This document shows positions 1 to 64,000 of a DNA stretch of 64,000 nucleotides, piece after piece; within the stretch, counting starts at the first letter, position 1; every line of letters starts with the position of its first letter. The position numbers and the translations under genes were made by a program. This DNA comes from Macrostomum hystrix. Lineage: Eukaryota > Animalia > Platyhelminthes. The DNA is taken from NCBI GenBank assembly GCA_950097015.1, contig CATNEN010000038.1, positions 17,422,001 to 17,486,000 of the forward strand. Direction: 5' to 3'. Under the pieces are notes generated by a model, which ran no database searches, was not told the DNA's origin, and was given only the letters and a program-made list of their open reading frames with translations.

Positions 1-27
1 AAGGATTTAAAATGATTTGTCACTCAC

Positions 28-4784: not shown

Positions 4785-4788
4785 AGAG

Positions 4789-5913
4789 TGGGAGATATCA
4801 GAGTGGGGGGGACTCGAGGGTCTACAACTCCGAGACGCGACTAGTCAGGGCTCTGAAATTTTACTGCCGTGTTCACAGATAATGTTTCCTTCCAGATCTG
4901 AGTTTTCAGCTTCTTTTTACCACCAGATTCAGTGAGGTGACGAAAAGTACTTTTAAAATGGGAGATATCAGAGTGGGGGGGACTCGAGGGTCTACAACTC
5001 CGAGACGCGACTAGTCAGGGCTCTGAAATTTTACAGCCGTGTTCACAGATAATGTTTCCTTCCAGATCTGAGTTTTCAGCCTCGTCTGAGCACCAGATTC
5101 AGTGAGGTGACGAAAAGTACTTTTAAAATGGGAGATATCAGAGTGGGGGGGACTCGAGGGTCTACAACTCCGAGAAGCGACTAGTCAGGTCTCTGAAATT
5201 TTACAGCCGTGTTCACAGATAATGTTTCCTTCCAGATCTGAGTTTTCAGCTTCTTTTGACCACCAGATTCAGTGAGGTGACGAAAAGTACTTTTAAAATG
5301 GGAGATATCAGAGTGGGGGGGACTCGAGGGTCTACAACTCCGAGACGCGACTAGTTAGGGCTCTGAAATTTTACAGCCGTGTTCACAGATAATGTTTCCT
5401 TCCAGATATGAGTTTTCAGCTTCTTTTGACCACCAGATTCAGTGAGGTGACGAAAAGTACTTTTAAAATGGGAGATATCAGAGTGGGGGGGACTCGAGGG
5501 TCTACAACTCCGAGACGCGACTAGTCAGGGCTCTGAAATTTTACAGCCGTGTTCACAGATAATGTTTCCTTCCAGATCTGAGTTTTCAGCTTCTTTTTAC
5601 CACCAGATTCAGTGAGGTGACGAAAAGTACTTTTAAAATGGGAGATATCAGAGTGGGGGGGACTCGAGGGTCTACAACTCCGAGACGCGACTAGTCAGGG
5701 CTCTGAAATTTTACAGCCGTGTTTACAGATAATGTTTCCTTCCAGATCTGAGTTTTCAGCTTCTTTTGACCACCAGATTCAGTGAGGTGACGAAAAGTAC
5801 TTTTAAAATGGGAGATATCAGAGTGGGGGGGACTCGAGGGTCTACAACTCCGAGACGCGACTAGTCAGGGCTCTGAAATTTTACAGCCGTGTTTACAGAT
5901 AATGTTTCCTTCC
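4789..5913 (-). repeat. 170-bp tandem repeat, about 6.6 copies (right arm, inverted)
   Basis: Reverse-complement units ending ...GTTTCCTTCC at 4893, 5063, 5233, 5403, 5573, 5743 and 5913. Confidence 0.95.
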
Positions 5914-28310: not shown

Positions 28311-30840
28311 GGTACCTGGACACTTCATCATCTTACAACTTCGTCATCCAGATGATGATCTGTCCAATATCTTAGAGGGTGGATGACGAAGAGACTTAGA
28401 CTTGTGGACACTTCGTCATCTATAAAACAAAAGTTTTCAAAGTTAGAACAGAACCACCCCTCCCCACCTCCTCACATCGTGTTGGCACCTTTCTTTTAAC
28501 TCTTATAATGAAATCAGTTTTGACACCTCTTTTTGGCAATTTAAGATGTGAAGTGTGTTCATACCTCTGCCCCACCACCCTACCCTCACTTTATTGATGA
28601 CAAACTTAATTGCTTATTTGTTATTAGTATTATTATTATTATTATTAAGACGCTGAAGAGTCAGAGACCCTTAGCGCTCACACGCTCGCGAAAAAGCTCA
28701 GAGGGGCAGGAAGTAGCCTCAAGCAGAGTGAGGTTGATGGCCTGTAGGTCATTAGTGAAGGTCTTTAAGAGAGTTTCAGTGCGCGCATGTCCGTGTCGAA
28801 AAGGATCGCTTGGCGGATTTAGCACAACAATCGCAAGGGGGTTGGTTTCTCCGCGTCCGTAGTTGCGTAACACGTGGCCGAGAAGCCGCTGTCTCCGCGC
28901 CCTGAGTATGGAGCTCACCGGCGGGACGCAGGAGCGAGCAGCGAGCGCACGGTTTGACAGCCTTTCGGGGTAGCGTACGTCCAGAGCGAAACGCAGGAAG
29001 GCTCTGAAAGTGGCGTCGAGAGCCCGCTTGCAAGATTTCGTGATTGGGAGAGCCTCCAAGCCATAAAGGAATATCGGCTCTACGGCAGCACGAAAAATCC
29101 GGATTTTGAGTTGGTCAGGCACGGGTGAGCAGAAGATGGGGCTCAGCTGTCGAGCAGCTCTCCAGGCTTGCGCACGACGATCGGCGACGATGTCCTCCGG
29201 AGAGACCACCAGCGAGCCGAGGTACCGAAAATCCGAGCAGACAGAGATTTCGTCACCGTTTGCAAGGGTAAGAGGAGCCGGGTCGCTGATGCCGACGTGG
29301 AGCACCTCGGTCTTGCGAGCGTTCACTTCGAGGCCGACTCTGGCACCTTCCTCGCAGATTCTGTTGAGCGCTGACTGAGCGGCCGAAGGGTCTCTGCACA
29401 CCAGGGCGATGTCGTCGGCAAAAGAGAGGGCAGCCAGCGTGGTCTCAGGGTGACGCGAGCTGCGGCGGTGGACAACAACATAGGCTTCGTCTTCAGAGAG
29501 GGAACGGCGAAGGACATAATCAATGATAATGATGAATATGAAAGGGGCTAGGGTATCTCCTTGGAGAACGCCGGAGCTGGTAGTGAAGGTCTCGGTGACA
29601 TCCTTTCTCATCTCGACAAAAGCGCGGGTGTCGGAGTAGAGGTCCATGATTGCCGTCACTAGAGTTGGTGGAACACCATAATAAGAGAGGAGCCACTCAA
29701 TGGCAGCTCGACTGACCGAGTCAAAGGCTTTGCGAAAGTCGACGAACACTATGGTCACCGACTTTTGCCGCGTTATGCAGGACTCGATGATGCAGCGGAC
29801 AGTGGCTATTTGCTCAACAGTAGATCTGCCAGGGCGGAATCCACTCTGAGCGCCCAGCAGAAGCAGGTTGATGATCGGCAGCAGTCTGTTCCTCAGGATC
29901 GAATTGAGGAGTTTTGTCCTGGGTACACTCCAGGACAAATTTCATTCAAAGCTTTATGAACTCCGACCCACGCCCTGATGAATCCGCTGACGCCTTTGCC
30001 ACCGCCGTCGCTTCTGCCGCCGCGACGCTGCCGAAGCGCTCCCCTCATCGGCCAAAGGCGCTTTGGGACTCCGATCCTCACGTGGAGCTGGCGAGGAGGA
30101 GGCTGCAAAAGGACGTCGCCCGTTTCGGACAGGACAGCCCTGCTGCCGACAACGCGCGTGACAATCTCACCCGCACCTACTCGGATTGCACGAGACTTTT
30201 CGTTGAGGAGGCTGTCTCGGAAATCAGGGATGCAGTTGACAACTGCAGACACAGAGCTGCTTGGAGAGCCATAAACAATCTGACCTGCCGGAAACCAAGG
30301 CAGTGCACTGTTGTTGCACAAAGTGCGCCGACTCGGTCAAGGACAGAAAGGCTAAGCTTGTAGAGCACTATCGGCGTGTTCTCAACCCACCTGTCCCAAC
30401 TGCGGTGCTTCTCCCTGTCCCTGGCTTCACCCTTGCTCGCAGCGAGGATTTCAATATCGGTCCTATCACGCCCTCCGAGGTTCGCAACACGCTTAAAAGC
30501 ATGAAGCCTGATGCTGCGCCTGGTGTCGATGGGGTGCCTCCCAGGGTCCTCAGACTTCCAGAGCTTACTTCGGTAATCACCACGCTCCTCAACAAATATT
30601 CCGTTCTTGGAGGCGACGCCGGCGCCGAGGCTCCCTGCATCTGGCGCACCTCTAAGATTGTCTCAATTCCAAAGAAGGGCCTGTCCACCTGCCTGGACAA
30701 CCAGAGGGGCATCGCTCTGGAGTGTTATTAGTAGATGACAAACTGACCAAACTTTAAAGCATGCCAATTGGCTGGATGACAAAGTGTCCTACCTTCCAAG
30801 TGGATGACGAAGTTGTAAGATGAAAAAGTGTCTAGGATCC
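28311..30840. mobile_element. Merlin/Mutator-like MITE (about 426 bp excluding the inserted LINE)
   Basis: 40-bp TIRs with 35/40 identity (28311-28350; 30801-30840), beginning GG and ending CC. Exact 9-bp TSD CTAGTAAAC (28302-28310, 30841-30849). Confidence 0.85.
28630..30722 (-). mobile_element. RTE-like non-LTR retrotransposon, 5'-truncated and 5'-inverted
   Basis: Minus segment 28630-29933 carries RT motifs GFRPGRSTVEQI, FVDFRKAFDSV, GVLQGDTLAP, FADD and FRYLGS, a stop at 28661 and a (TAA)n tail. Plus segment 29934-30724 encodes the upstream linker and RT start (APGVDGVP, WRTSKIVSIPKKG, NQRGIALEC) with a frameshift near 30330. 11-bp TSD TGTTATTAGTA (28619-28629, 30723-30733). Confidence 0.92.
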
Positions 30841-38500: not shown

Positions 38501-41500
38501 CTAAGAATTGGGATGCAGTGTCTGAGGAATACTTAGAATTGGGATGCAGTGTCTGAGGAATACTTAGAATTGGGATGCAGTGTCTGAGGAATACTAAGAA
38601 TTGGGATGCGGTGTCTGAGGAATACTAAGAATTGGGATGCAGTGTCTGAGGAATACTTAGAATTGGGATGCAGTGTCTGAGGAATACTTAGAATTGGGAT
38701 GCAGTGTCTGAGGAATACTAAGAATTGGGATGCAGTGTCTAGGGGATCTTAATACTTAGAATTGGGATGCAGTGTCTGAGGAATACTAAGAATTGGGATG
38801 CAGTGTCTGAGGAATACTAAGAATTGGGATGCAGTGTCTGAGGAATACTAAGAATTGGGATGCAGTGTCTGAGGAATACTAAGAATTGGGATGCAGTGTC
38901 TGAGGAATACTAAGAATTGGGATGCAGTGTCTGAGGAATACTTAGAATTGGGATGCAGTGTCTGAGGAATACTAAGAATTGGGATGCGGTGTCTGAGGAA
39001 TACTAAGAATTGGGATGCAGTGTCTGAGGAATACTAAGAATTGGGATGCAGTGTCTGAGGAATACTAAGAATTGGGATGCAGTGTCTGAGGAATACTAAG
39101 AATTGGGATGCAGTGTCTGAGGAATACTAAGAATTGGGATGCGGTGTCTGAGGAATACTAAGAATTGGGATGCAGTGTCTGAGGAATACTTAGAATTGGG
39201 ATGCAGTGTCTGAGGAATACTAAGAATTGGGATGCAGTGTCTGAGGAATACTAAGAATTGGGATGCAGTGTCTGAGGAATACTAAGAATTGGGATGCAGT
39301 GTCTGAGGAATACTAGTCTGGTAGTTCTACAATGAAAATTACTTAAACTAGGCAGAATAGAGTAGGCTTAGTGAGATGAGCTGTAAGCTAACAGGACTGT
39401 GTGGTCTAATTAGGCTTACAATTATACTCTAGTACTTAATTAGGCCTAGGCGTGCCCGTTCTATTGACTAACTTGATTTCAACACCCAGGCCTTGTTCGC
39501 TTCGTCTATTTTTTTCTATCTATAGTCATCCTGTCAGGGCTCCACAGCTGCGCGAGTGGTATATATGATATATAATAAATACCTTGATTTTCGCGACGTG
39601 CGACACACTCAACTCTATGATACTTAGCTCGTATGTACTAATGCGAGTACATTTAGTTTGAAATTTGTTTAGTTAATTCTTAGTCTCAACTGAGAGACTT
39701 CCAATGTTAAACGTCTCCGTAGTCGTAAACTATCGGAGATACGAGAAAACAAAATATGAGACAGGTGAATGGTTAGATATTGGAGATACGTGAATGGTTA
39801 GATGTTGGAGACGGGTGAATGGCTAGATATTGGAGATACGTGAATGGTTAGATGTTGGAGACAGGTGAATGGTTAGATATTGGAGATACGTGAATGGTTA
39901 GATGTTGGAGACGGGTGAATGGCTTGATATTGGAGATACGTGAATGGTTAGATGTTGGAGACAGGTGAATGGCTAGATGTTGGAGACAGGTGAATGGTTA
40001 GATATTGGAGACAGGTGAATGATTAAATGTTGGAGACAGGTGAATGGCTAGATATTGGAGACACGTGAATGGTTAGATATTGGAGACAGGTGAATGGCTA
40101 GATGTTGGAGACAGGTGAATGGTTAAATGTTGGAGACAGGTGAATGGTTAGATGTTGGAGACAGGTGAATGGTTAAATGTTGGAGACAGGTGAATGGTTA
40201 GATATTGGAGACAGGTGAATGGTTAAATGTTGGAGACAGGTGAATGGTTAGATGTTGGAGACAGGTGAATGGTTAGATGTTGGAGACAGGTGAATGGTTA
40301 GATGTTGGAGACAGGTGAATGGTTAAATGTTGGAGACAGGTGAATGGTTAGATGTTGGAGACAGGTGAATGGTTAAATGTTGGAGACAGGTGAATGGTTA
40401 GATATTGGAGACAGGTGAATGGTTAAATGTTGGAGACAGGTGAATGGTTAGATATTGGAGACAGGTGAATGGTTAAATGTTGGAGACACGTGAATGGTTA
40501 GATATTGGAGACACGTGAATGGTTAGACGTTGGAGACAGGTGAATGGCTAGATATTGAAGACACGTGAATGGTTAGACGTTGGAGACAGGTGAATGGCTA
40601 GATATTGAAGACAGTTAAATGTCTAGAGGGACAGCTTTAGCTATTAGAAAATGCCCAGCCAACCGATCACTAAGTGAGTTGGGACGGTCGTAACGCTAAA
40701 TTGATGAAAGTTAGGTAAGATCCATTCGTCGTCTATTTCACGTTTTACTCGTTTGCACTATTGAATTTAAAAGTGCAAGCGCATTTCTTGCAAATTAAAT
40801 TTACACAGGACAAGTACAGAGACTGGCTCTGCTCCGTGACATTCAGCGTCTATAATTCAAGCTCGCCTGCTAGCAAAGTCAGCCCCTGCTCCGTTTGGTG
40901 CCAATCGGTGGAGACCGAGTGTCCATATTTGACACCGTCCGACGAGAACTCTAATTCCGGAGAGCCAGTCTTCCTGTGCCATGGTGAGCCTCCAAGACCT
41001 CTTACATGCCTCCCAGATCCTCTACTTACCTCTTAGATCCTGTATAACCTTCAAGATCTCCTACTGACTTCCCAGATCGCCTACTGACTTCCCAGATCCC
41101 CTACTGACTTCCCAGATCCCCTACTGACTTCCCAGATCCCCTACTGACTTCCCAGATCCCCTACTGACTTCCCAGATCCCCTACTGACTTCCCAGATCCC
41201 CTACTGACTTCCCAGATCCCCTACTGACTTCCCAGATACCCTACTGACTTCCCAGATCCCCTACTGACTTCCCAGATCCCCTACTGACTTCCCAGATACC
41301 CTACTGACTTCCCAGATACCCTACTAACTTCCCAGATACCCTACTGACTTCCCAGATACCCTACTGACTTCCCAGATCCCCTACTGACTTCCCAGATACC
41401 CTACTGACTTCCCAGATACCCTAATGACTTCCCAGATCCCCTACTGACTTCCCAGATCCCTTGCTGACTTCCCAGGTATCCTACTGGCTCTACGACATCT

Positions 41501-43073
41501 TACAGACATCCAAGATCTCCTGCTGACCTCCTAAAACCTTCAGACTTCAGACTCCTTCAGACCTTTCAGACTCCAGATCCTCCACTGACTCCAGATCCAA
41601 TACTGACCTCCAGATCCACTACTGACATCCTAAATGCCGTTCTGAACTCCTATATTTCATATTTTCGAACAGTCCAATTATTCGAAAAATGTCAAGTAAA
41701 TTTCTATTTAAATATCCTCAAACACAGTTAGCTGTGTGCTTTTCTAGGATTAAAGCCCCTCGTTTTTGCAATTCAAATTTCCTGCCAGCCTAATTAGCTA
41801 TTCGATGGTATGCTTGTGGGGATTGAAAGCTTGTCTATACAGTGAGCTGGGATATGCATTAGCGCATCCCTGTAGCTTTCATTTTCCGTGTTTAGTGGTT
41901 TCCCTAGATGCACAGTGGGATGGCAGGTCAGAATTTTTAATTCGCTGTCCGGTCAGATCAATTTACGCCTCTCTTAGCTTTAATCTGTCGCCTATCCGTC
42001 TTTGTTTGACCCATATGAATTGTCCGCTTTTGAGATCCGATATCTCCTAATTGACTCTTTTTAACCCTATTCTTCCCTTTCTAGGAACTGGTGTTTTCTG
42101 GGGAAATCTAGTTTGAACTTGCTGTCGTTAATTCGGCGCACTCTAGCACTAGTTAAATATAATTTTCGTCTCGATAGACTTGTTTATACATTTCTTAACT
42201 GTCTAGATCCCCATCTAGCATTATAAATCCCCATCTAATATTTTCAATTTCCTGCCAGATCCCTATCCTACCTTCCAGATCCCTATCCTACCTTCTAGAT
42301 CCCTTTCCTACCTTCCAGATCCCTATCCTACCTTCCAGATCCCTATCCTATCTTCTAGATCCCTATTCTATCTGATTCTTATCTTTCAGATCCCTATCCG
42401 ACCTGATCCTTTTCTTCCAAATCCCTATCCGACCTGATCCCTATCTACCAGATCCCTATCCGACCTGATCCCTATTTTCCAGATCCCTATTTTCGAGATC
42501 CCTATCTTCCAGATCCCTATCTGACCTGATCCGTATCTTCCATATCCCTATCCGACCTGATCCCCATTTTCCAGATCCCTATTTCCCGATCTCTATCTTC
42601 CAGATCCCTGTCTTCCAGATCCGACCTGATCCCTATCCTATCTTCCATATGCCTATCAAACATTCGAGATTTCTTGTCTAAAAAGCAAATTTAGTATCAA
42701 CATCAGGCCGCCAATATCAACATCCGCAGAGGACAGTTACAAAGGCGCCAATGTGTCGGATCGTTGCACTGGCAGCTCGCAATGCTGCTGCTATGAACCA
42801 GCGACTATAGGCAATCACACTGATATTGCCATCGTCTGTACCTCACCGCCTGTCTCTGCTTCTGCTTCTATATCGAGCAGTCAGGGCGGCGAAGCTATTG
42901 AAGACTATTCAACCGCTGACAGTCCAAACTCCGATGCTAGTATTGCAAATTCTTCAAATACTACTTATTATAATAGCAGTAGCAGTAGCAGTGCTAGTTC
43001 AAATAGCGCCGCCAACCGAAGCCTGATATTAATGCTCCTGCTGTTGTTAGCACTAATCAATTCATTACATTGA
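35600..43073 (+). CDS. NALF1: NALCN channel auxiliary factor NLF-1/FAM155 (Mid1-related), 3 exons, about 434 aa
   Basis: Exons 35600-36385, 40809-40983 and 42730-43073 give 1305 nt. N-terminal hydrophobic segment; Cys-rich domain CQDKYRDWLC...PCSVWCQSVETECPYLTP...GEPVFLC matching the FAM155/NLF-1 pattern; CCY; Ser-rich stalk; C-terminal hydrophobic tail. Confidence 0.82.
37090..39315. repeat. Compound minisatellite: 37-bp block (37090-37830) then 31-bp block (37830-39315)
   Basis: Units TAGTGTCTAGGGGATCTTAATACTATGAGTTGGGATG and CAGTGTCTGAGGAATACTAAGAATTGGGATG. Confidence 0.97.
39758..40615. repeat. 25-bp minisatellite GGAGACAGGTGAATGGTTAGATGTT
   Basis: About 34 copies in NLF-1 intron 1. Confidence 0.96.
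41060..41630. repeat. 20-bp minisatellite CTACTGACTTCCCAGATCCC
   Basis: About 21 near-perfect copies to 41475, degenerate beyond; NLF-1 intron 2. Confidence 0.95.
42255..42650. repeat. Degenerate CCAGATCCCTAT-based repeat
   Basis: Iterated (cc)agatccctat / acctgatccctat motifs with a period of about 16-20 bp. Confidence 0.85.
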
Positions 43074-45679: not shown

Positions 45680-46092
45680 CTTCAGGATGCTGGCTGTGTA
45701 ACCCCCAGTACTTCAGGATGCTGGCTGTGAAACCCCCAGTACTTCAGGATGCTGGCTGTGTAACCCCCAGTACTTCAGGGTGCTGGCTGTGTAACCCCCA
45801 GTACTTCAGGATGCTGGCTGTGTAACCTCCAGTACTTCAGGATGCTGGCTGTGTAACCCCCAGTACTTCAGGGTGCTGGCTGTGTAACCCCCAGTACTTC
45901 AGGATGCTGGCTGTGTAACCCCCAGTACTTCAGGGTGCTGGCTGTGTAACCCCCAGTACTTCAGAATGTTAGCTGTGTAACCCCTAGTACTTCAGGATGC
46001 TGGCTGTGAAACCCCCAGTACTTCAGGATGCTGGCTGTGTAACCCCTAGTACTTCAGGATGCTGGCTGATTAATTTCTAGTACTTCAGGATG
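45680..46092. repeat. 31-bp minisatellite CTTCAGGATGCTGGCTGTGTAACCCCCAGTA
   Basis: About 13 copies just upstream of the MPP8 start codon. Confidence 0.95.
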
Positions 46093-46243
46093 ATGACAGT
46101 GAAATCCCTTGTACTTCAGTTTTAATCCGGCTTGTGTTTCAAAAATTTTCAGAAATGTCTCCCAGCAGACTACCAGTCCTAACTGGTTAAATTAGGTTCA
46201 CAATATCAGAGCAATTGCAAAAAGAAGAGGTCAGATATAAAAT

Positions 46244-48686
46244 ATGGAACAATTGGAATCTGGGGAACTGTCCACCCAGTCTTCTACTGCTACGGAAGCT
46301 GCTCAGCAAAATGAGCACGAAAATGAATACGAAGTTGAGAGCATCCTTGAAGTGCGTGGACGCGGTCACACCAGGCGCTATCTAATCAAATGGAAAGGCT
46401 TCGGCGACGATTGGAACACTTGGGAGCCGCGCAGCAATCTGATTGGCTGCGAGGCGGCTCTGCAAGCCTTCAACGAAGAATTGCAACGGAAGAAGAATAA
46501 GAAGCTGTCGAAGCAGAATAAGAAAAAACTGACTGTTGTTTCCATGGTAAATATTTTTGTTCCCTCTGAAACCCGATCCCTTTGAATCTGAAATCTTATT
46601 TAATATCTTCGAATACAGAATCCCAAATCCCTATTGACGATCCAATAAGCCTACATATCAAATCCCAGTGGCCCCTAACCAAACTTCTGAAATCCCAATT
46701 ACCTCAACCCAAAATATCAACTCCCCATCACCTCCAATCCCTAATACATCCAACCCTAAGAGTCAAATCCCTAATACATCTAACCCTAAGAGTCAAATCC
46801 CTAATACATTCAACCCTAAGAGTCAAATCCCTAATACATTCAACCCTAAGAGTCAAATCCCTAATACATCCAACCCTAAGAGTCAAATCCCTAATACATC
46901 CAACCCTAAGAGTCAAATCCCTAATACATCCAACCCTAAGAGTCAAATCCCTAATACATCTAACCCTAAGAGTCAAATCCCTAATACATTCAACCCTAAG
47001 AGTCAAATCCCTAATACATTCAACCCTAAGAGTCAAATCCCTAATACATCCAACCCTAAGAGTCAAATCCCTAATACATCAAACCCTAAGAGTCAAATCC
47101 CTAATACATCCAACCCTAAGAGTCAAATCCCTAATACATTCAACCCTAAGAGTCAAATCCCTAATACATCCAACCCTAAGAGTCAAATCCCTAATACATC
47201 CAACCCTAAGAGTCAAATCCCTAATACATCCAACCCTAAGAGTCAAATCCCTAATACATCCAACCCTAAGAGTCAAATCCCTAATACATCAAACCCTAAG
47301 AGTCAAATCCCTAATACATCCAACCCTAAGAGTCAAATCCCTAATACATTCAACCCTAAGAGTCAAATCCCTAATACATCCAACCCTAAGAGTCAAATCC
47401 CTAATACATTCAACCCTAAGAGTCAAATCCCTAATACATTCAACCCTAAGAGTCAAATCCCTAATACATTCAACCCTAAGAGTCAAATCCCTAATACATC
47501 CAACCCTAAGAGTCAAATCCCTAATACATTCAACCCTAAGAGTCAAATCCCTAATACATTCAACCCTAAGAGTCAAATCCCTAATACATCCAACCCTAAG
47601 AGTCAAATCCCTAATACATTCAACCCAAAGAGTCAAATCCCTAATACATCCAACCCTAAGAGTCAAATCCCTAATACATCCAACCCTAAGAGTCAAATCC
47701 CTAATACATCTAACCCTAAGAGTCAAATCCCTAATACATCCAACCCTAAGAGTCAAATCCCTAATACATCCAACCCTAAGAGTCAAATCCCTAATACATC
47801 CAACCCTAAGAGTCAAATCCCTAATACATCCAACCCTAAGAGTCAAATCCCTAATACATCCAACCCTAAGAGTCAAATCCCTAATACATCCAACCCTAAG
47901 AGTCAAATCCCTAATACATCTAACCCTAAGAGTCAAATCCCTAATACATCCAACCCTAAGAGTCAAATCCCTAATACATCCAACCCAAAGAGTCAAATCC
48001 CTAATACATCCAACCCTAAGAGTCAAATCCCTAATACATCCAACCCTAAGAGTCAAATCCCTAATACATCCAACCCTAAGAGTCAAATCCCTATTACATC
48101 CAACACTAAGAGTCAAATCCCTAATACATCCAACCCTAAGAGTCAAATCCCTAATACATCCAACCCTAAGAGTCAAATCCCTAATACATCCAACCCTAAG
48201 AGTCAAATCCCTAATACATCCAACCCTAAGAGTCAAATCCCTATTACATTCAACCCTAAGAGTCAAATCCCTAATACATTCAACCCTAAGAGTCAAATCC
48301 CTATTACATCCAACCCTAAGAGTCAAATCCCTAATACATTCAACCCTAAGAGTCAAATCCCTAATACATTCAACCCTAAGAGTCAAATCCCTATTACATT
48401 CAACCCTAAGAGTCAAATCCCTAATACATCTAACCCTAAGAGTCAAATCCCTAATACATTCAACCCTAAGAGTCAAATCCCTATTACATCCAACACTAAG
48501 AGTCAAATATCTTTTCTCCAACCCTAAATACAAATCCCTTTTACCTCCAAGCCCTAAAATTATGAAATCTGAAATCTCCATTTTAAGGCCTCAGCTACTC
48601 CAGCAACAGTGTTGCCTGTAGAAATAGATAGGCCTAGTTCAGATCGTCTTACGGAGACTCGTCATAATCTTCAACAACAACAACAA

Positions 48687-48726
<40 letters not shown>

Positions 48727-50433
48727 CAAACAGTACTGATGAGTCATCGGACATTAACCGCGGTCTATTTAACAAATTCCGTCGATCTTCTGAGTCCACC
48801 AGCTCCAACCCAGTCGCAGTGCCTGGCAGCTCTAGTTCGGCGTCTAATTCGATCTATTATAAATCTGGCCACGAACTCGACCGCCTACTGGACTCCCTGC
48901 CGGCTCTGAATCACTGTCCCAGTTTGCCGGACCCGCCTAGCAGGCCAGGTTGCTCTAATCCGATCGCCGCGGTTGAAACCGGATCACTGGCCGAACTGAT
49001 TCGCCTACTACATTCGCCCGGCTGCGATCTGAACTGGACAGACGAGGATAGAAACGGAGAGACGGCGCTGACTGCCGCGCTCAGGCTAGGCAATGTGGCC
49101 GCTGTTCGACTGCTGCTGCAGCACGGCTGCTCCGTCAGCACCTGGACTACGCTCAATTCGGTGCATCATCATCAGCAGCAGCAGATTCTGCCGCCATCTT
49201 CAGCTTCCTCGTCGTCTGCTTCATCTTATTCTCCGTTAGCCGCTGGTGATTTATTGAATAATGGAAACAGACAGCAGCAGTTGGTGCTTAAAGATCCGTT
49301 TATTGTGGCCAGGTAAAATTGATTTCACCTGTTGTGTCGTCTAATCCCTTAGTGCCCTTATCATAAAATCTCTTTCCTCTTTCCTCTTCTATTCTTTCAG
49401 AGTCAATATCCAATCCTTCAGGTTCATTATCAATCCTTCAGGGTCCTCATCCAATCCTTCAGGTTCATTATCAATCCTTCAGGGTCCTCATCCAATCCTT
49501 CAGGTTCATTATCAATCCTTCAGGTTCATTATCAATCCTTCAGGTTCATTATCAATCCTTCAGTGTCTTCAGCCAATCCTTCAGGGTCTTCATTCAATAC
49601 TTCAGGGTCCTCATCCAATCCTTCAGGGTCTTCATCCAATCCTTCAGGGTCCTCATCCAATCCTTCAGGGTCCTCATCCAATCCTTCAGGGTCCTCATCC
49701 AATCCTTCAGGGTCTTCATCCAATCCTTCAGGGTCCTCATCCAATCCTTCAGGGTCCTCATCCAATCCTTCAGGGTCCTCATCCAATCCTTCAGGGTCTT
49801 CATCCAATCCTTCAGGGTCCTTCATCCAATCCTTCAGGGTCCTTCATTTAATTATTGTAAATCCTCACGCAATCCGTTTGAGTCGCTAATCCGCAACCCG
49901 TCTCCCATCTCGCCCATCCCAGAAGTTGTCCCCTGGCCGGGGAGCTGCAGTGCCTGCTCCAGCGTCACTGCGATGCAGTTTCTCAGGCCCTCGCCGACTG
50001 CGCCCAATCGGCTCTGAGCAGCTCGGCGCGCCTTCTCGCGCCGCTAGGCCGGCTGCACATTCTGCCAAGGCCCGGCCTAGTTGTACAAATCGATGTGCCG
50101 GATCGCCTGCCAGATTTGCCATGCGTTCTGTTGCTAGGCAACGCAGTGTTCGACACCGGACCAGATGCTACCGCGGCTCCTTTAGTGCGTCTAAGAGGCC
50201 GCTGTTCCCTTAGGGAGGTCTGGCTTAACAATGTCCGTCAGCAGGCGCTCAGTCAGGCCGGGTGTTTCATTGTCACCTGCGCACCACTGCGGCCTGGAAT
50301 GAATCAGCTCAGTCTGGTGCCGAGCGCCTCCTTCCGCGAACCGGCTGACGGACGATTCAGGCTGCTAGTGCGCGCCTACGAAGTCAAATTATTAACAGAC
50401 GGTGCGGGTGGCGATGATTCTCAGGGTCGGTGA
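46244..50433 (+). CDS. MPHOSPH8: M-phase phosphoprotein 8 (MPP8) orthologue, 3 exons, about 512 aa
   Basis: Exons 46244-46546, 48588-49312 and 49923-50433 give 1539 nt. Chromodomain YEVESIL...YLIKWKGFGDDWNTWEPRSNL; ankyrin DRNGETALTAALRLGNVAAVRLLLQHG; C-terminal LLQRHCDAVSQ...LLAPL...VRLRGRCSLREVWLN...PGMNQL...RLLVRAYEVKL resembles the recalled human MPP8 C-terminus (LLKNHLETLSR...LLEPV...ARLCGPCSVQAVVLN...AGPNKL...KLLIGAYRVQL). Confidence 0.86.
46735..48508. repeat. 30-bp minisatellite AAATCCCTAATACATCCAACCCTAAGAGTC in MPP8 intron 1
   Basis: About 59 indel-free copies, phase-locked. Confidence 0.98.
48672..48725 (+). repeat. (CAA)6(CAG)12 coding polyQ tract (18 Q) in MPP8 exon 2
   Basis: Read directly from the sequence. 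Confidence 0.95.
49410..49845. repeat. 21-bp minisatellite CCAATCCTTCAGGGTCCTCAT in MPP8 intron 2
   Basis: About 20 copies in two variants. Confidence 0.95.
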
Positions 50434-53650: not shown

Positions 53651-53792
53651 CAATTCAATCCTATCTCACTCCCAGATTCTTGGGTGGATCCTGTCCTAAA
53701 TCGTCATCCTCACCCCCATCCCGTCCCATATCTAAATAGGATTGTACATAAATTCGACTGCTCACCATACCATTTCCAGCATCCCAAGAAGG

Positions 53793-56700
53793 ATGCAGGC
53801 CAACGCCACTCGCGAAGATCTCATTAGAGCTCTGTTCCGCGCCAAGAGTCTTCTAGTCGAATGCGATCATCTCCACCGGGCCTATGCTCAGCAGTGCCGG
53901 CGGGTGAGCTCGCTAGAGGCTGAGCTCAGCCGCGCCAGAGATGCCGTAGACCGGTGCTCTGTGCTCGAAGCTGCTTTATCATTGACCGAGGCCAAATTGC
54001 AGCGAACTCAGCAGGAATTGAACGAGACTCAATTAGAACTAAGAAAATATCGAGACAAGCCGCAGTTATCCGAGACTTTAAAAACTTCTAAACGACCAAG
54101 AAGTGCAGCTGCGGCGGACGAAAATGTCTCTTCCGGAGCAATCGCATTGCGAGCAAAGCGTCCAAAACGGCATTCTAGCGTTGCTGAAATCAATCCTAGA
54201 ATAGCCATGCAAAGCCGGCATCCGCGTCGGGTTGATCTGGACGCAACCTCTAGCGACGAAGAAAGTCAGCGCTTGAGCGGTGTTATCTCGACCTCGGAGA
54301 CAGAAACAGTGCATCGTACAGTTGGGATCTCCAATGAATCCACTCGACCAAAGTGTTCGAGCCTGCAACAACAGGCTTTAGCGCATGAAACTGTTGAAAA
54401 TGATGCTGAAATTCCTTCACCCGAGAAGCCTACTTGTAAGCTGGACTGTACCAGATCGTCGTCTTCTAACGACTTGTCCGATCAGTCCCTAGTAATTGTT
54501 AGGGAAGTGCCAGCTAGACAGTCCAACGATCAACCACCGGTCACCCGATCGAAACAATCGCGACTATCTCTGCCAGCTCATTCTCGAGCGACTCAGATAG
54601 CTAAACAACGTCGAAAATTTCGTCGGGTTGATCTGGACGCAACGTCTAGTGAAGACGATGATAATGCTCGCGTCGATGATCAAGGATGTTCTTCTTCGAC
54701 CGCAGTGCCCAATAAGTCTTTTTCGGTCAAGACAAGGCATCGACTAGCTACAAAACGGAATGCTGATAGAGTTTTCAACCTAAAGAGTTTTATGAAAGTT
54801 CTAACCATTGAATCGACAGATAGGCCAGTTATTAATGCTAAGAATTTAGCATCTGGCGAAGTAATTTTGGTGCAGGATGCTCAAGGTACAACATCTGAGG
54901 ATGCTATTGTCGTGCAGGATGCTGCAGGTGCAACATCTGAGGATGCTATTGTCGTGCAGGATGCTGCAGGTGCAACATCTGAGGATGCTATTGTCGTGCA
55001 GGATGCTGCAGGTGCAACATCTGAGGATGCTATTGTCGTGCAGGATGCTCAAGGTGCAACATCTGATGATGCTATTGTCGTGCAGGATGCTCAAGGTGCA
55101 ACATCTGAGGATGCTATTGTCGTGCAGGATGCTCAAGGTGCAACATCTGAGGATGCTATTGTCGTGCAGGATGCTCAAGGTGCAACATCTGATGATGCTA
55201 TTGTCGTACAGGATGCTGGAGGTGCAACATGTGAGGATGCTGCAGATGCAACATCAGAGGATTCGATTGTCGTACATGATGCTGAAGGCTCAGCTTCAGG
55301 GAAGTCTGTTGAGATAAAGGACGCTGGAGATCCTACATCAGAGGGGCTAGCAATAATCCTGGACGCTGAAGATACTGCATCTGATGCGCCGGCTATTGTA
55401 CAAGACGAAACATCTGAAGAATCAGCTGTAGTACATGATATAGAATATACGAAATCAAAGGGATCGGTTGTGGTGCATGATCTAGAAGACACGAAATCTG
55501 ATGGATCGGCTGTAGAACATGATCCAGAAGACACGAAATCTGATGGATCGGCTGAAGTACATGATCCTGAAGACACGAAATCTGATAGATCGGCTGAAGT
55601 ACATGATCCTGAAGACACGAAATCTGATGGATCGGCTGAAGTACATGATCCTGAAGACACGAAATCTGATGGATCGCCTGAAGTACATGATCCTGAAGAC
55701 ACAAAATCTGAGGGATCTGACTGGTCGTCAGTAGTCCACGATGCTGAAAATGCGACGTTTGAGAGGCTGGCTGTTGTGCACAATCTAGAAGATGCTAAAT
55801 CGGTCCGGTCTGACCAGTTCTCATTATTACACGATGCTGAAGATGAAAATTCTACGGTTTCTAAAGTGGTTCAGAACGTCGAGGAGCCCGTGGTACAGGA
55901 GGTGCTAGACGGTGCACCTAAGCAGTCATTCTATGTAGAAAAATCTAACAAAACCCAATCAGAACAGCAACTTGCGGACAATCCTAAAGACTCTTCAAGT
56001 CAGCTTCTTAGCGATAACACTGACGAAGAATCTGCTGAGCTGACTTATGTGGAGGAATCGAAGGACGCCTTTGCAGAGCTTGTCATTGACGATAATGACG
56101 AAGAGTCTTCAAGCAAGCTTATTGTTTCAGATTCCACTAAAGAAGTCTCATCGGAGCTCATTGTTGTTGATGATTATACTAAGCAGATGTCTTCTGAACT
56201 GTCCGATGGCGGCCAAATCTCAGCAGATAGTCAAACAGTGTGTTTTTCTGCGCAGAGTGAAGCAAAGGGCCCTTGTTCATGTTCGTCAAGACTAGACAGT
56301 ACCGAGAGGCATTCTTCCAGAGTTTCAACATCAGAAAGTGATGATTCCAACGCGCTACCAGTGGGTGTTGCCATAGCGGAATGCGCCGCCTTATCTAGCC
56401 TCATCGAGCAGGCCTCAGAGCTGCAGGAAAGTGCCGATTCAAGTCCGGAGAAATTTAGAATCTCCGATACTAAATTGCACGAGGATGATACATTAGAAAA
56501 CTTGACCATTGTGGACAGCGAGATGTCCGACAAAATGCCCCGGCTAGCGCATTCAGTGACTAAGGCCTCGGACGACTGGCAATCTAGCGCGTCAGCTGCA
56601 ACTATAAGTGAAGACTTCGATGATGCGCCGTGCTCTCTTGCTATCGTCGACTTTGACGACGATACTGACCGAGCTTCGATTGCCAGCAGTTCAACAGCGG

Positions 56701-57416
56701 CTAAACGGCCGTCCTTCCTCTCACCCATCAGGTCTCCGGATCCCGAGACGATCGACTATCCCGTCGCGCCCAGCGCCGCTTCCGTTTGCCGGCTAAAACA
56801 GTGCTCATTTCCCATTGAAGAGTTTGTTCTAGATCTCAACACGTCCTCGGCATTTCGTGCCGTTGCCAGACGCTTCGCCGACGGCTGGCAACTCGACCCG
56901 GTGATGGACTGGATCTTCTTCCTGTCACACCGCATGGACATGCTCGAGCCCCTGCCCGCTGAACCTCTCAGCTTCCGAGAACGCGTCCAGGCCGGCATGG
57001 CTATCGTCCTTGACAACGAGAACGGCGTCCTTGACAACGACGAGCTCGACGCGCTGCTCCGGCCGGACGCCCTCGCTGAACTTTGCCGCGGCGTCCAACC
57101 GGCTTGGATTATCGACCGATTAATTCCTTTCCTTCAGCGCCTGCTGGAGAACACTTCCGGGGGCGATGACGGCGGCGTTCAACACGACAGCCAGCTGGCA
57201 GCCCTGAGACGCCGCTGCGTCGCCTGCCTGATGCTAGTCGGGCCGTTGTCACCGGAGTCGGCCGCACGCTCCGCGGTGCGCTGGATTAATGCCGATAATC
57301 CGCCTACTGGAGACACGATAATCGGCCAGGTTAAGCGATTCCTTAAGATGCGACCGGCACTACTGCGAACCCTGTTTGCCACTGAGAAATTTCCTGTGTG
57401 CCTGCTGACCGCCTGA
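53793..57416 (+). CDS. ICE1: Little elongation complex subunit 1 (ICE1)-like, single coding exon, about 1207 aa
   Basis: N-terminal coiled coil ALFRAKSLLVECDHLHRAYAQQC has the same spacing as the recalled human ICE1 ALITLKQKIINTDNLLTEYQKKC. A long acidic disordered middle follows, then a C-terminal helical domain ending GPLSPESAARSAVRW (compare LSPSNPAEISKILEAW). First ATG at 53793, after an acceptor at 53779. Confidence 0.7.
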   Translation: MQANATREDLIRALFRAKSLLVECDHLHRAYAQQCRRVSSLEAELSRARDAVDRCSVLEAALSLTEAKLQRTQQELNETQLELRKYRDKPQLSETLKTSKRPRSAAAADENVSSGAIALRAKRPKRHSSVAEINPRIAMQSRHPRRVDLDATSSDEESQRLSGVISTSETETVHRTVGISNESTRPKCSSLQQQALAHETVENDAEIPSPEKPTCKLDCTRSSSSNDLSDQSLVIVREVPARQSNDQPPVTRSKQSRLSLPAHSRATQIAKQRRKFRRVDLDATSSEDDDNARVDDQGCSSSTAVPNKSFSVKTRHRLATKRNADRVFNLKSFMKVLTIESTDRPVINAKNLASGEVILVQDAQGTTSEDAIVVQDAAGATSEDAIVVQDAAGATSEDAIVVQDAAGATSEDAIVVQDAQGATSDDAIVVQDAQGATSEDAIVVQDAQGATSEDAIVVQDAQGATSDDAIVVQDAGGATCEDAADATSEDSIVVHDAEGSASGKSVEIKDAGDPTSEGLAIILDAEDTASDAPAIVQDETSEESAVVHDIEYTKSKGSVVVHDLEDTKSDGSAVEHDPEDTKSDGSAEVHDPEDTKSDRSAEVHDPEDTKSDGSAEVHDPEDTKSDGSPEVHDPEDTKSEGSDWSSVVHDAENATFERLAVVHNLEDAKSVRSDQFSLLHDAEDENSTVSKVVQNVEEPVVQEVLDGAPKQSFYVEKSNKTQSEQQLADNPKDSSSQLLSDNTDEESAELTYVEESKDAFAELVIDDNDEESSSKLIVSDSTKEVSSELIVVDDYTKQMSSELSDGGQISADSQTVCFSAQSEAKGPCSCSSRLDSTERHSSRVSTSESDDSNALPVGVAIAECAALSSLIEQASELQESADSSPEKFRISDTKLHEDDTLENLTIVDSEMSDKMPRLAHSVTKASDDWQSSASAATISEDFDDAPCSLAIVDFDDDTDRASIASSSTAAKRPSFLSPIRSPDPETIDYPVAPSAASVCRLKQCSFPIEEFVLDLNTSSAFRAVARRFADGWQLDPVMDWIFFLSHRMDMLEPLPAEPLSFRERVQAGMAIVLDNENGVLDNDELDALLRPDALAELCRGVQPAWIIDRLIPFLQRLLENTSGGDDGGVQHDSQLAALRRRCVACLMLVGPLSPESAARSAVRWINADNPPTGDTIIGQVKRFLKMRPALLRTLFATEKFPVCLLTA
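54870..55850 (+). repeat. Coding 42-bp (14-aa) tandem repeats in ICE1
   Basis: VQDA(A/Q)GATSEDAIV x8 grading into HDPEDTKSDGSAEV x5-6 with a mostly maintained 42-bp period. Confidence 0.93.
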
Positions 57417-60062: not shown

Positions 60063-61583
60063 TCAACTGGACCTGTTCGTGAAGACAATCTTGTGCACCG
60101 GCGGGCTCCTAATAAAGACTCCCTTGGTGAACTCCGGATCGTCGGTTAGCTGCCAGATGTTCCTCGAGTCCGTGGGGTCCAGGCCAAATGTGTAGCGCTG
60201 CAGCAGGGTGGCGAAGAAGATGAAGAGCTCCATGCGGGCCAGACTCTCGCCCAGGCAGGCGCGCTTGCCTAAGCCGAAGGTGGCCAAGTGCGGGCAGGGC
60301 ACAAACTGGCCGTCAGTGCCGAGGTGCCGCTCCGGCAGGAAGCGCTTCGGCTCCGGGAACAGTTCCGGGTCGTGGTGTATGGAGTACACGTTAAATGCGC
60401 AGAGGCTGTTGGCCTTGAGGCGGACGCCGTCCACGGTGATGTCCTCCAGGACGCGGTGGAATACGCCTAGCGCTACCAGGCAGGCCTTGCGGTGGACCTC
60501 CTCGATGACGGCCTGGGTGTAGTGCAGCGCCGACTTGTCCTGCATCGTTGGCAGGCGCTCTAGACCGATCTTGTCGGCGATCTCCTTGTGCGCCTTCTCG
60601 GCCACCTCCGGGTTGGCGATCATGAACAGCACCGCCCAGCGCAGCGTGTTTGACGTGGTGTCGGTGCCCGCGATGAACAGGTCGCTAATTGCCAGCGTCA
60701 AGCGCACATCCGTGAACATGTCCGGCCTGCTGCGCTGATGCAGGAGGTGCGCCTCGATGTAGTCCCTGGCGTGTTTGACGCCTTCCATCTCCGCCGCGTG
60801 CTTCTCCCGCTGCTGGTTACAGTAGGCCTGCAGCCGCTTGAAGTTGTCGGCCACCTGCCTGGAGCCGGGCAGTTTGCTGATGAGTGGCAGAAGTATCGGG
60901 AAACGCTCCAGCACCGGACCGGTGGAGAGAAAAATGAAGCTATTCCGATTGAAGTCCGGCGTCTGCGTAATGTCGCTGAACAGCTGCAGGATCTCGGCAA
61001 AGTTGGCGTCCTCCGACGCCAACCGGGAGCCAAACACAAGCTGACAGATGACGTTGCTTGTTGCCGTGCTCATCAGCGCCGATGTCTCGACCGGGGCTCC
61101 ATCGGCCGCGTCCAGCATCCGCTGGAGATGCTCGGCTTCGACTCGGATGATCTCCTCGGCGCCTCGCCGGCCGAAGCCGAAGTCGCGGAGAGTCTTGAGC
61201 GTGAAGCGCCGGTACTCCCGCCAGATGTCACCTTCGCTGTTCACCAGTCCGCCAACGTCGCCGAACAGGCTGGCGGCGATGAGCTGGCTCATGCGGCCCG
61301 TCATCTCCTCGGCGTTGTCCAGCATGGCGGCTCTGAAGGCCGGCCAACGGTTGAACACGTACACCGGCTGGATGCCGAAGTGGACTCGCACAATTTGATG
61401 ACTGCCGAACTTCTCGTACAGAGTCAGGTGCAACGGCTCCTCCAGGTGCAGCAGGCTGCCAATCAGCGGATAACGGCCGACACTGATTGGCTCCCGGCTG
61501 TCCTCCCAGCGTTTCTGCAGTAGCCAGATTAGGCCCCCGGCCAGCGCAGCTCCGCCAGCCAGCACCAGGGTGGACGCGGCCAT
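60063..61583 (-). CDS. Cytochrome P450, clan 2 (CYP2-like), intronless, 506 aa
   Basis: N-terminal anchor, YPLIGSL, WREYRRFTLKTLRDFGFG, I-helix AGTDTT, EEVHR (ExxR), PERH and heme loop FGLGKRACLGESLA. Confidence 0.96.
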   Translation of the reverse strand: MAASTLVLAGGAALAGGLIWLLQKRWEDSREPISVGRYPLIGSLLHLEEPLHLTLYEKFGSHQIVRVHFGIQPVYVFNRWPAFRAAMLDNAEEMTGRMSQLIAASLFGDVGGLVNSEGDIWREYRRFTLKTLRDFGFGRRGAEEIIRVEAEHLQRMLDAADGAPVETSALMSTATSNVICQLVFGSRLASEDANFAEILQLFSDITQTPDFNRNSFIFLSTGPVLERFPILLPLISKLPGSRQVADNFKRLQAYCNQQREKHAAEMEGVKHARDYIEAHLLHQRSRPDMFTDVRLTLAISDLFIAGTDTTSNTLRWAVLFMIANPEVAEKAHKEIADKIGLERLPTMQDKSALHYTQAVIEEVHRKACLVALGVFHRVLEDITVDGVRLKANSLCAFNVYSIHHDPELFPEPKRFLPERHLGTDGQFVPCPHLATFGLGKRACLGESLARMELFIFFATLLQRYTFGLDPTDSRNIWQLTDDPEFTKGVFIRSPPVHKIVFTNRSS

Positions 61584-62569
61584 GCCAACCAGTTAAAACT
61601 TGCCGGCCTCGTTAATGAAACTTTTCCAACTATAGAAATCAGGTCTATTTATACTGCGGCTAGTGAGCCTGTCTGGCTGAGCTGCAAGTAAAATTCTCTG
61701 CGCAGATATCAACGGAGGGCATTGAAAGAAAGCTATTAAAAGACAGTCGAGGTTGGTGTTGAGTATGAGCATACGAGGTTAAATAATCTAAGTTTTTCTC
61801 TAGAGGTCGCACCTATTCTGTGGTAAGATTTGGAGGTTATTTCACTAATCTACAACAGCTGTTATTTATTTATCATTGTCAGACAATTTTTTGTACTAAA
61901 TTATCTAAGTATTCATTCTCTTCTTTCATCTTTCATAAAAAATAATGGAAAATATGAACTCAGTTAATGAATTGTTACAGGTCAGAGGATGATAAATTTA
62001 GTCAAAAAATGCAACGTGATTTTTATATCTGCGCAAAGTTGCCACAGATTTAGCTAGACACAGAAACATAAAAGCTGCAAAACTGCTTCAAGTAGAAGAA
62101 TAAAAGCTTTAAAAAACACAATATATCGTATAGGAAACGATCAAAAAGACTTGGCAAGCAACACAATGTTGATAAGTTGACATGCAAGACAACTAAAAGG
62201 TACTCATCTGATTTAAATCACTGGTCATGGAAAAGCACCAAATTATATGGTACACTGGTTAAAGTTATCGGGTCTCAAGAATAGATCTTAGTTCATGACT
62301 ATCATTAGGGTCAGAAGGATTTATCTTTGGTCATAGAAGACAAAGTTATTTTTTGTTCGTAGGCATGGAATGGCTTCTTTGTCACTAATTAAGACCGTAT
62401 TCATAAAATTACAATTGTTATATTTTTGTAAAAAACTAATAATTAACAAAAATTATAAAAAAACGCTGCATGCGCACTGAATTTTATACTCATAGTAGGA
62501 CACAAAGAACGACCTTCAAATTGTAAAAAATTTAAGTACATAAAATTTACCGTACCGTAAAAAATAGCC

Positions 62570-64000
62570 CTAATTAAAAATGCTCGCAGTACCGTACAAA
62601 ATGGATCGACAAATTTCGCCAAACATTGAGTCCAATTTTTTCACCTGTGACTCTGTATAGACCTTATTGTGAATTCGATACCACAGGTGTAACAGGTAAT
62701 TACGCCGGCGCCAGTCCCACCTGGCCTGCTGGCCTGTGTCATAGATCAGGGCCACCTGTTGCGGGGTCCAATTCGGTCTGGCCATGCTCTCCTGCTCCAC
62801 GTGGCACAGCTGCGGGAGGGCTCGAGCTAGCCTGTCGGGCAGGTGTACGGAATGGATGGCCCAATCGGCAGTGTTAAATGTCTGATAGGCCAGGTGCCAA
62901 ATTGCGACAAAGCTGGCATTTGGTGCGGAGAGCATCGCCGCGTTACAGAGGCCGCTGGAATGCTCCCGACCGATGGTGAAGTCGTAGAGTCGCAACGGGT
63001 CGAGGGGTTTGAGCACAACAACGTCCAGGTCGAGATAGACTCCGCCAAAGATGAGTAGGGCTTCTAGACGCATGACGTCTGACTGATGCTCCGGTGTGGC
63101 TATTGGGCGGGAGTACACTCGCTGTGGTAGCTGCCTGGTTGCCATGACAACGCGATCATCCCAGTTGTGCCCGGTAAGATTGCGTCGAAGCGCCTTCCAC
63201 CAATGGCCTCCGAGTGGACGGCCGGGCGGCTGCCACAGCAGCAGCAGCTGGGGCCGCATCACGTGCACGCAGCTGAGCAGGCTGACGAAGTGATGAAAGC
63301 GCAGGCGGGCTTCCATAAACGGCAGGATATAGTGGGCCGCGTTTGGCACCGGGTTGCCCTGAGAGCGGTTTAGAGTTACTCGGAGTCTTGGAGACATTGT
63401 GTCTAACAGCTGACACGTGTCTAACACCTGACACTAATGTCTAGCAAAAGACACTCAAGTCTAACAACAGACACTCATTTCTAACAGCTGACACTCGTGT
63501 CTAACAGCTGACAGTCAGTTCTAACAGCTGACACTCCAGTCTAACAGCTGGCACTTAAGTCTAACAGCTGAAACTAATATCTAACAGCTGACACTAATAT
63601 CTAACAGCTGACACTAATATCTAACAGCTGACACTAATATCTAATAGCTGACACTAATATCTAACAGCTGACACTCATATCTAACAGCTGACACTCATAT
63701 CTAACAGCTGACACTAATATCTAACAGCTGACACTAATATCTAACAGCTGACACTCATATCTAACAGCTGACACTCCAGTCTAACAGCTGACACTCCAGT
63801 CTAACAGCTGACACTCCAGTCTACAGCAAACAAACCTGAGATCCCTGTAGAAGCGTTCTCTGCACAGCCTCCACCGTCAACACTCGGCCAGACAAGGTTT
63901 TCAGGCGCCAGTCGACAGTAGAAAACCGCGGCACCTGGTGCCTCATCAGGCTGTGCAACAGCAGCCCAGAGCTGCCATGGATTCTCCAGGCGATCTTACT
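62570..64000 (-). CDS. GT32 alpha-1,4-glycosyltransferase-like (A4GNT/A4GALT family), last two exons, partial
   Basis: Exon 63358-62570 (acceptor CTCTCAG|GGC) contains VPNAAHYI, EHQSDVMRLEALLIFGGVYLDLDVV (DxD), LCNAAMLS and WAIHSVHLP. Upstream exon >=64000-63836 is open and in phase (CAG|GTTTGT). Confidence 0.88.
63400..63825. repeat. 20-bp minisatellite CTAACAGCTGACACTAATAT in the GT32 intron
   Basis: About 21 copies. Confidence 0.95.

Follow-up and report, generated by a model that had tools for sequence, protein, structure and literature searches.

The analysed stretch of Macrostomum hystrix DNA (64,000 nt, hereafter the window, whose positions serve as coordinates throughout) carries on its forward strand a three-exon gene (46244..50433) that very probably encodes an orthologue of MPP8, a core subunit of the vertebrate human silencing hub (HUSH) complex; amino acid (aa) positions refer to its 512-aa product. 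Joined together, the exons form an uninterrupted reading frame of 1539 nt that encodes 512 aa and ends in a stop codon; another in-frame stop lies immediately 5′ of the main ATG (46244). Exon 1 (46244..46546, aa 1–101) encodes a chromodomain (aa 29–78) followed by a basic stretch, as assigned from Pfam, the alignment to MPP8, and sequencing contigs. Exon 2 (48588..49312, aa 102–343) encodes a low-complexity linker, two ankyrin repeats, a low-complexity insert, and the beginning of a degenerate third repeat; it was assigned from Pfam (Ank_2), a model of the Macrostomum lignano orthologue, and contigs. Exon 3 (49923..50433, aa 343–512) encodes a long helix (α10 of MPP8) and a PINIT-like β-sandwich extending to about aa 499, followed by a short tail and the stop codon. 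The region from the ankyrin repeats to the end of the β-sandwich is homologous to the corresponding unit of MPP8. Intron 1 (46547..48587, 2041 nt, GT-AG, phase 0) is filled by a minisatellite (30 bp×60.8, 46736–48557), and intron 2 (49313..49922, 610 nt, GT-AG, phase 2) contains another (21 bp×21, 49408–49843). These minisatellite-filled introns give rise to long false open reading frames, and the in-frame three-exon model that an initial annotation, made from the sequence alone, had read across them was recovered unchanged.

The gene is spliced and expressed. Contigs of public sequencing runs were aligned to the exons, and junctions were read from contig ends running past the exon ends; both introns were absent from the contigs. 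The junction 46546/48588 was seen in runs X3 and X4 (contigs aligned on exon 2) and in runs X3, X5, and X6 (contigs aligned on exon 1), and the junction 49312/49923 was seen in contigs of runs X3 and X4, so that both predicted junctions were found. Runs X3, X4, X5, and X6 belong to one study, and their kind is not on record; none of the listed runs is recorded as RNA. Run X1 yielded no matching contig and run X2 a single 181-nt piece, neither of which was weighed for or against the model. We infer a single transcript containing all three exons, because contigs are interrupted at the CAG repeat of exon 2 and none of them bridges all three. The first 22 nt of contigs from X3, X5, and X6 match the 3′ portion of the spliced leader published for M. 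lignano (PMC5173321; for this and all other publications cited, statements refer to the accessible parts of the source). This leader start indicates that the contigs derive from mature mRNA and that the gene is trans-spliced. The acceptor AG lies at 46151..46152 on the forward strand, the leader is joined at 46152/46153, and a 5′ untranslated region of 91 nt with short upstream open reading frames starts at 46153. The upstream frames comprise 10 and 11 codons and begin at the final ATG of the leader and at the ATG at 46155. A 31-bp minisatellite (45680–46119) is situated a short distance 5′ of the trans-splice site.

Orthologues of the protein were found in M. lignano, in support of the flatworm origin presumed in the initial annotation. 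A protein search with exon 3 gave five matches from 4672 candidates, all of them from this species, the best being P0001 (463 aa, 84% identical). The three near-identical M. lignano copies (Mlig011412, Mlig032405, and Mlig007120; P0001, P0129, and P0130) are 463–469 aa long and show the same domain order as the 512-aa M. hystrix protein; database entries name them "hypothetical protein" or "Chromo domain-containing protein", none of them MPP8. Identity between the two species amounts to 45/52 residues in the chromodomain, 50/64 in the ankyrin repeats, and 140/167 in the helix and β domain, and to 25/80 (about a third) in the linker. Within the linker, an island N-terminal to the ankyrin repeats (aa 191–213, 48855..48923, forward strand) is 19/23 identical to M. 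lignano, whereas the flanking linker segments are identical at about a third of positions. A second island (approximately 48762–48785) is identical at 7/10 positions between both Macrostomum species. These two conserved islands, for which no match in amniote MPP8 was detected, are candidate binding motifs. The linker also contains the 18 consecutive Gln residues noted in the initial annotation (aa 130–147, encoded by a CAA/CAG run at 48672..48725, forward strand); in M. lignano the Gln-rich stretch is less long and contains interruptions.

The chromodomain was recognised by Pfam (PF00385, expect value E 4.3e-15), and its aromatic residues Y29, W50, and F53 align to the cage columns of amniote MPP8, in agreement with the cage residues named beforehand. 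The cage of MPP8 itself we take to consist of F59, W80, Y83, and D87. Equivalents of MPP8 T89 and E91, on which the numbering of the columns was anchored (PMC7618375), are kept. Against sequences in the PDB the best chromodomain matches were CBX5 and CDYL, ahead of MPP8; the alignment is ungapped to amniote MPP8 and gapped to CBX5 and CDYL. Chromodomains of HP1/CBX proteins and of CDYL match about equally well (E 3e-11 to 1e-8), but the chromoshadow or crotonase-like domain of these proteins was not found by Pfam in the M. hystrix protein, which ends instead in ankyrin repeats and a β-sandwich. Judged from these residues, the chromodomain likely reads methylated lysine. [quoted passage not shown]

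The ankyrin region was matched by Pfam (Ank_2, E 1.4e-8); two repeats (aa 222–285, 48948..49139, forward strand) align to MPP8 repeats 3 and 4 according to hidden Markov model (HMM) and hhalign comparisons. In the predicted structure of P0001, three helical hairpins are followed by a 27-residue last helix, so that the ankyrin region closes with a long helix as in MPP8. An extra helix pair at P0001 149–173 was predicted at a local confidence score (pLDDT) below 50 and may be an ankyrin remnant.

Since the chromodomain and ankyrin matches would fit other proteins too, the C-terminal domain decides the identity of the protein. A search of PDB sequences with P0001 returned the structure of the human MPP8 C-terminal region (8qfb, over aa 311–454, E 8.5e-5), and among 7987 scored longer proteins the sole match was lizard MPP8 (E 3.4e-4). 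In the reverse search with lizard MPP8 the best 120 of 655 matches were listed, all of them amniote. Comparison of exon 3 with alligator MPP8 715–860, a target picked by hypothesis, gave a score of 72, whereas shuffled sequences averaged 27 and none of 5000 scored as high; over the last 162 residues, 42/147 aligned residues are identical. With an amniote MPP8 profile the exon-3 frame ranked first among 1036 sequences (E 0.0014), and hhalign assigned a probability of 93.7% to the ankyrin repeats and β domain together. The C-terminus ends almost in register with that of MPP8, and motif matches are collinear over about 150 residues; the two motif matches named in the initial annotation hold against both the 8qfb sequence and the amniote profile.

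Structure predictions were compared in the same way. A model of the domain built alignment-free reached a pLDDT of 38 and showed a long helix followed by β strands. With this model the top four Foldseek matches were chains of 8qfb (E 0.037–0.077, template modelling (TM) score 0.33, root-mean-square deviation (rmsd) about 14). In a VIA-align search with the same model, 8qfb was absent among the best 50 rows, which held generic β-sandwiches (best Z 6.3 and 5.7); because the alignment-free model is poor, this null result does not count as an exclusion. For P0001, a model was built from an alignment that included 19 amniote rows and is thereby biased towards MPP8; it reached a pLDDT of 51.6 and contained the chromodomain, three helical hairpins, the 27-residue helix, and a β-sandwich; it matched 8qfb with a Foldseek E of 4e-9 and a structural alignment Z of 13.2 (rmsd 6.0, 229 residues aligned). 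The predicted fold also resembles the PINIT domain of Siz/PIAS proteins: the same model aligned to Siz2 with Z 7.3 (rmsd 3.4, 108 residues aligned, 12% identity), such proteins appeared in low-ranked Foldseek rows, and no SP-RING was found in the M. hystrix protein by Pfam. This PINIT likeness is one already reported for human MPP8 (PMC7618375).

A second, divergent MPP8-like protein provided a link between the two. When metagenome sequence was scanned for chromodomain patterns, 594 stretches yielded 181 relatives; 80 were kept, and two of these loci (L007 and L008) match the MPP8 C-terminal region to its end with 28% identity. The profile comparison gave E 1e-24, a value driven mostly by the ankyrin repeats, the β domain alone giving E 0.018 among 5888 frames. 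[quoted passage not shown] Its last 161 residues have 8qfb as their sole PDB match (E 0.026) and match exon 3 with a pairwise E of 2e-5, 2/5000 shuffles scoring as high; when P0133 was added to five amniote rows, the E value of exon 3 improved to 1.9e-5. A profile without vertebrate rows (exon 3, L007, and L008) placed 8qfb first (E 0.0026), as one of two matches. The organism carrying P0133 is probably not a vertebrate, because identity is 28%, compared with at least 76% among the amniote matches listed. A frame break in L007 (L007:32-3722) looks like an assembly error, the cluster members being whole, and the third cage-aromatic position of P0133, read by eye, appears to be Cys.

Taken over shuffle test, profile ranks, and structure searches, the β-sandwich is homologous to MPP8 741–860, and the agreement of these methods bears out the MPP8 identity first proposed from motif likeness. 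Like vertebrate MPP8, the protein combines an N-terminal chromodomain bearing three cage aromatics with a disordered linker, ankyrin repeats, a long final helix, and a C-terminal PINIT-like β-sandwich. The compactness and the smaller number of ankyrin repeats described initially were likewise found: 512 aa compare with 860 in MPP8, and about three repeats, the final one preceded by a low-complexity insert, compare with five in human MPP8. The linker is Gln-rich, whereas that of MPP8 is Lys/Glu-rich, and the mRNA is trans-spliced.

The reading we favour, in which middling confidence is placed, is that of a compact, highly diverged flatworm MPP8 orthologue which pairs with a TASOR-like protein and represents an ancestral two-protein HUSH core. 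The protein would be nuclear, as its family suggests; its chromodomain would read methylated histone lysine, with H3K9me2/3 or the H3K9-like peptides found in methyltransferases as ligands, and SETDB1 or G9a/GLP-type enzymes would be recruited as by other family members. A re-tuned C-terminal surface would bind the flatworm TASOR-like protein, its interface residues having changed along with the partner, and from such a pair the silencing core of HUSH is predicted to descend. Repeats and retroelements would thereby be repressed, most plausibly in the germline and in dividing cells. TASOR binding and the repression of repeats and retroelements are the least secure parts of this scheme.

Several results weigh against that reading. 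As regards the domain match, hhalign gave only 24% probability for the β domain alone, exon 3 alone had no match among PDB sequences at E≤10, and neither of two large searches with exon 3 alone (4672 candidates; 1.84 billion representatives) returned a vertebrate match, so that outside Macrostomum exon 3 alone stays short of significance at database scale. In the chromodomain, W57 here, and W in P0001, stands in a column where 117 of 120 amniote rows have D (the other three being gaps) and which we presume to be that of the MPP8 cage aspartate; a Trp at this acidic cage position means that mark specificity may differ. As regards the interface, only MPP8 ankyrin repeats 3–5 align (HMM, hhalign, and the P0001 model), repeats 1 and 2 being undetected although in MPP8 the ankyrin face is where the SPOC domain of TASOR has been modelled (PMC7618375). 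R741 and F813 of MPP8, present in 120/120 amniote rows, align to S377 and R448, and C799 is replaced as well; an Arg is present two residues off the R741 column. The MPP8 segment 536–565, which includes F548, was not detected in an alignment search (1739/5000 shuffles scored as high), although a short motif could escape such a search. Finally, the TASOR label of the candidate partner in M. lignano is weak, automatic, and taken from a related species. The conserved linker island aa 191–213 was tried as the F548 segment and rejected on the same shuffle result.

The interface changes matter for the TASOR-binding C-terminal domain claimed initially. The ankyrin repeats and PINIT-like domain of human MPP8 bind the TASOR domains SPOC and DomI, MPP8 536–562 (with F548) wraps around SPOC, the triple mutant F548G/R741A/F813A is non-functional, and the chief function mapped to the C-terminal region is to bind TASOR (PMC7618375). 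With R741 and F813 replaced, the F548 segment undetected, and only repeats 3–5 alignable, a human-type TASOR interface is absent: the domain was retained, and the R741 and F813 contacts were not. Two possibilities follow: interface and partner changed in concert, or the protein has no need of TASOR. P0133 has S and D at the R741 and F813 columns; the change at both positions in this protein as well suggests that the amniote residues are vertebrate states of a variable surface, not a flatworm-specific loss. A HUSH-like silencing system around this MPP8 is thus plausible but putative, and the interface positions known from the human mutant speak against a simple replica of the human assembly.

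Candidate partners are named in published M. lignano data. The gene name C3orf63 is, we assume, an older name of TASOR. In M. lignano, the transcript RNA1509_42763 (5159 nt), in a germline-enriched list, is annotated C3orf63 with e=3e-06 to the human protein, and it also matches an acorn-worm protein (e=5e-19) and a planarian sequence (PMC5173321). A TASOR-like partner is thus suggested by this published automatic annotation alone. SETDB1 and EHMT1 homologues occur in the proliferating-cell lists of the same source. Searches of its four supplements for PPHLN1, Periphilin, MPHOSPH8, FAM208, DUF3715, MORC, and ATF7IP gave no match, which carries no weight as these are selected lists with cut cells; the gene names likewise gave no matches in the accessible supplements of PMC12801592 and PMC5730564. 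Compared with HUSH, in which MPP8, TASOR, and Periphilin act with SETDB1 and MORC2, one core subunit is found here, together with the TASOR-annotated transcript and the SETDB1 homologue of M. lignano.

It is possible, if on balance rather unlikely, that the MPP8 orthologue acts without TASOR, as a methyl-lysine reader whose C-terminal domain binds H3K9 methyltransferases, RNA-decay factors, or SUMO-pathway factors, no HUSH-like complex being formed. The replaced TASOR-contact residues, the undetected F548 segment, and the apparent loss of two ankyrin repeats fit this view, as does mammalian MPP8, which has chromatin sites free of TASOR and Periphilin and recruits the nuclear exosome targeting (NEXT) complex (PMC7618375); reviews moreover let HUSH first appear in cartilaginous fish (PMC7619638). 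Against it stand the retention of the whole ankyrin–helix–PINIT-like unit under strong constraint, the TASOR-annotated M. lignano transcript, and the change of R741 and F813 in the unrelated, divergent P0133. A full human-type HUSH (MPP8, TASOR, Periphilin, SETDB1, and MORC2) recognising long intronless transcripts is improbable: an MPP8 orthologue and the TASOR and SETDB1 annotations of M. lignano are in its favour, but those surfaces of MPP8 that were tested in the human complex differ here, and long uninterrupted frames in the window (a cytochrome P450 frame, 60063–61592, and a 1226-aa frame) would presumably need sparing. An independent chromodomain–ankyrin fusion with a β-sandwich alike by chance or through distant paralogy is very improbable, since the better CBX5 and CDYL matches, the poor alignment-free model (its 8qfb match having E above 0.001), and the existence of a chromodomain–ankyrin protein without a β domain (L005) are set against the MPP8 domain order, the near-register C-terminus with its collinear motifs, the ungapped chromodomain alignment, and the three-way match of amniote MPP8, P0133, and the M. 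hystrix protein.

The pairing of a flatworm MPP8 with a TASOR-like protein, as favoured here, would bear on the published range of the complex. Automatic MPP8-like annotations exist for some invertebrates. HUSH has been called vertebrate-specific (10.1101/2020.03.09.974832), and MPP8 is said to have no fly or nematode orthologues (PMC9635835 and its preprint). By contrast, TASOR-like proteins with the DUF3715-SPOC-DomI arrangement have been reported throughout animals, including invertebrates (PMC10578480), in amphioxus (PMC10111866), and in a snail, there on the strength of annotation (PMC12294990). A literature search over papers outside subscription, as far as their text was accessible, found no publication describing an invertebrate MPP8, and the accessible parts of PMC7955679, PMC11295320, PMC10380595, PMC12801592, and 10.64898/2026.09.07.749791 contain nothing on it. 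TASOR-like proteins in invertebrates are already known; the flatworm MPP8 is a new, distant member of its family and lies outside the range stated for HUSH. Together with P0133, a flatworm MPP8 carrying the C-terminal domain places the origin of that domain before the vertebrates, and it supplies the missing half of an ancestral MPP8–TASOR pair. Tentatively, with doubt prevailing, HUSH may be proposed to be older than vertebrates: a three-repeat MPP8 would bind a TASOR-like protein through a rewired interface, and DNA that has recently integrated or been retrotransposed would be silenced in stem cells and the germline. From the natural truncation it can be seen which parts of MPP8 are dispensable. 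M. lignano allows RNA interference and transgenesis (PMC5173321, PMC5730564), which makes a pre-vertebrate role of HUSH testable; were the proposal true, the origin of HUSH could be tested directly in a flatworm.

Among the remaining search results, exon 3 had seven matches in the 1.84 billion representatives (four M. lignano models, two proteins sharing long stretches with P0001, and one repetitive protein, which was set aside) and none in 596 metagenome stretches. Exon 3 alone met no Pfam family at the cut-off, and the ESM Atlas gave only unnamed matches (0.77) and none for the alligator domain. The chromodomain–ankyrin protein L005 (L005:483-2294) has 603 aa and many ankyrin repeats, and lacks the PINIT-like end.

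The surroundings of the gene were also surveyed. Exons of an upstream gene (40719–43073, forward strand) lie on the same coding strand as the MPP8-like gene and end in a hydrophobic tail. One of them matches the start of the M. lignano gene model P0002 (63%, E 5e-18), which continues into the M. lignano MPP8-like gene; the neighbourhood is conserved and possibly reflects an operon or a mis-fused gene model. On the other side lies an uninterrupted frame of 1226 codons (53736–57416, forward strand) with a coiled-coil-like start, 14-aa acidic repeats, and no Pfam match. A Pfam scan of 20 frames of the window gave matches for seven. Among the neighbouring coding pieces, Pfam assigned a SET domain (10–1026, reverse strand), a KIF23/MKLP1-like kinesin (9865–14091, forward strand), a major facilitator superfamily (MFS) transporter (20947–21615, reverse strand), a reverse transcriptase (28664–29941, reverse strand), the cytochrome P450 in one uninterrupted frame (60066–61592, reverse strand), and a DXD glycosyltransferase (62573–63433, reverse strand). 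Tandem repeats, mostly of 20–42-bp units, form 28 arrays after merging and add up to 20060 nt, or about 31% of the window; they include two facing arrays of a 170-bp unit at 3912–5913.

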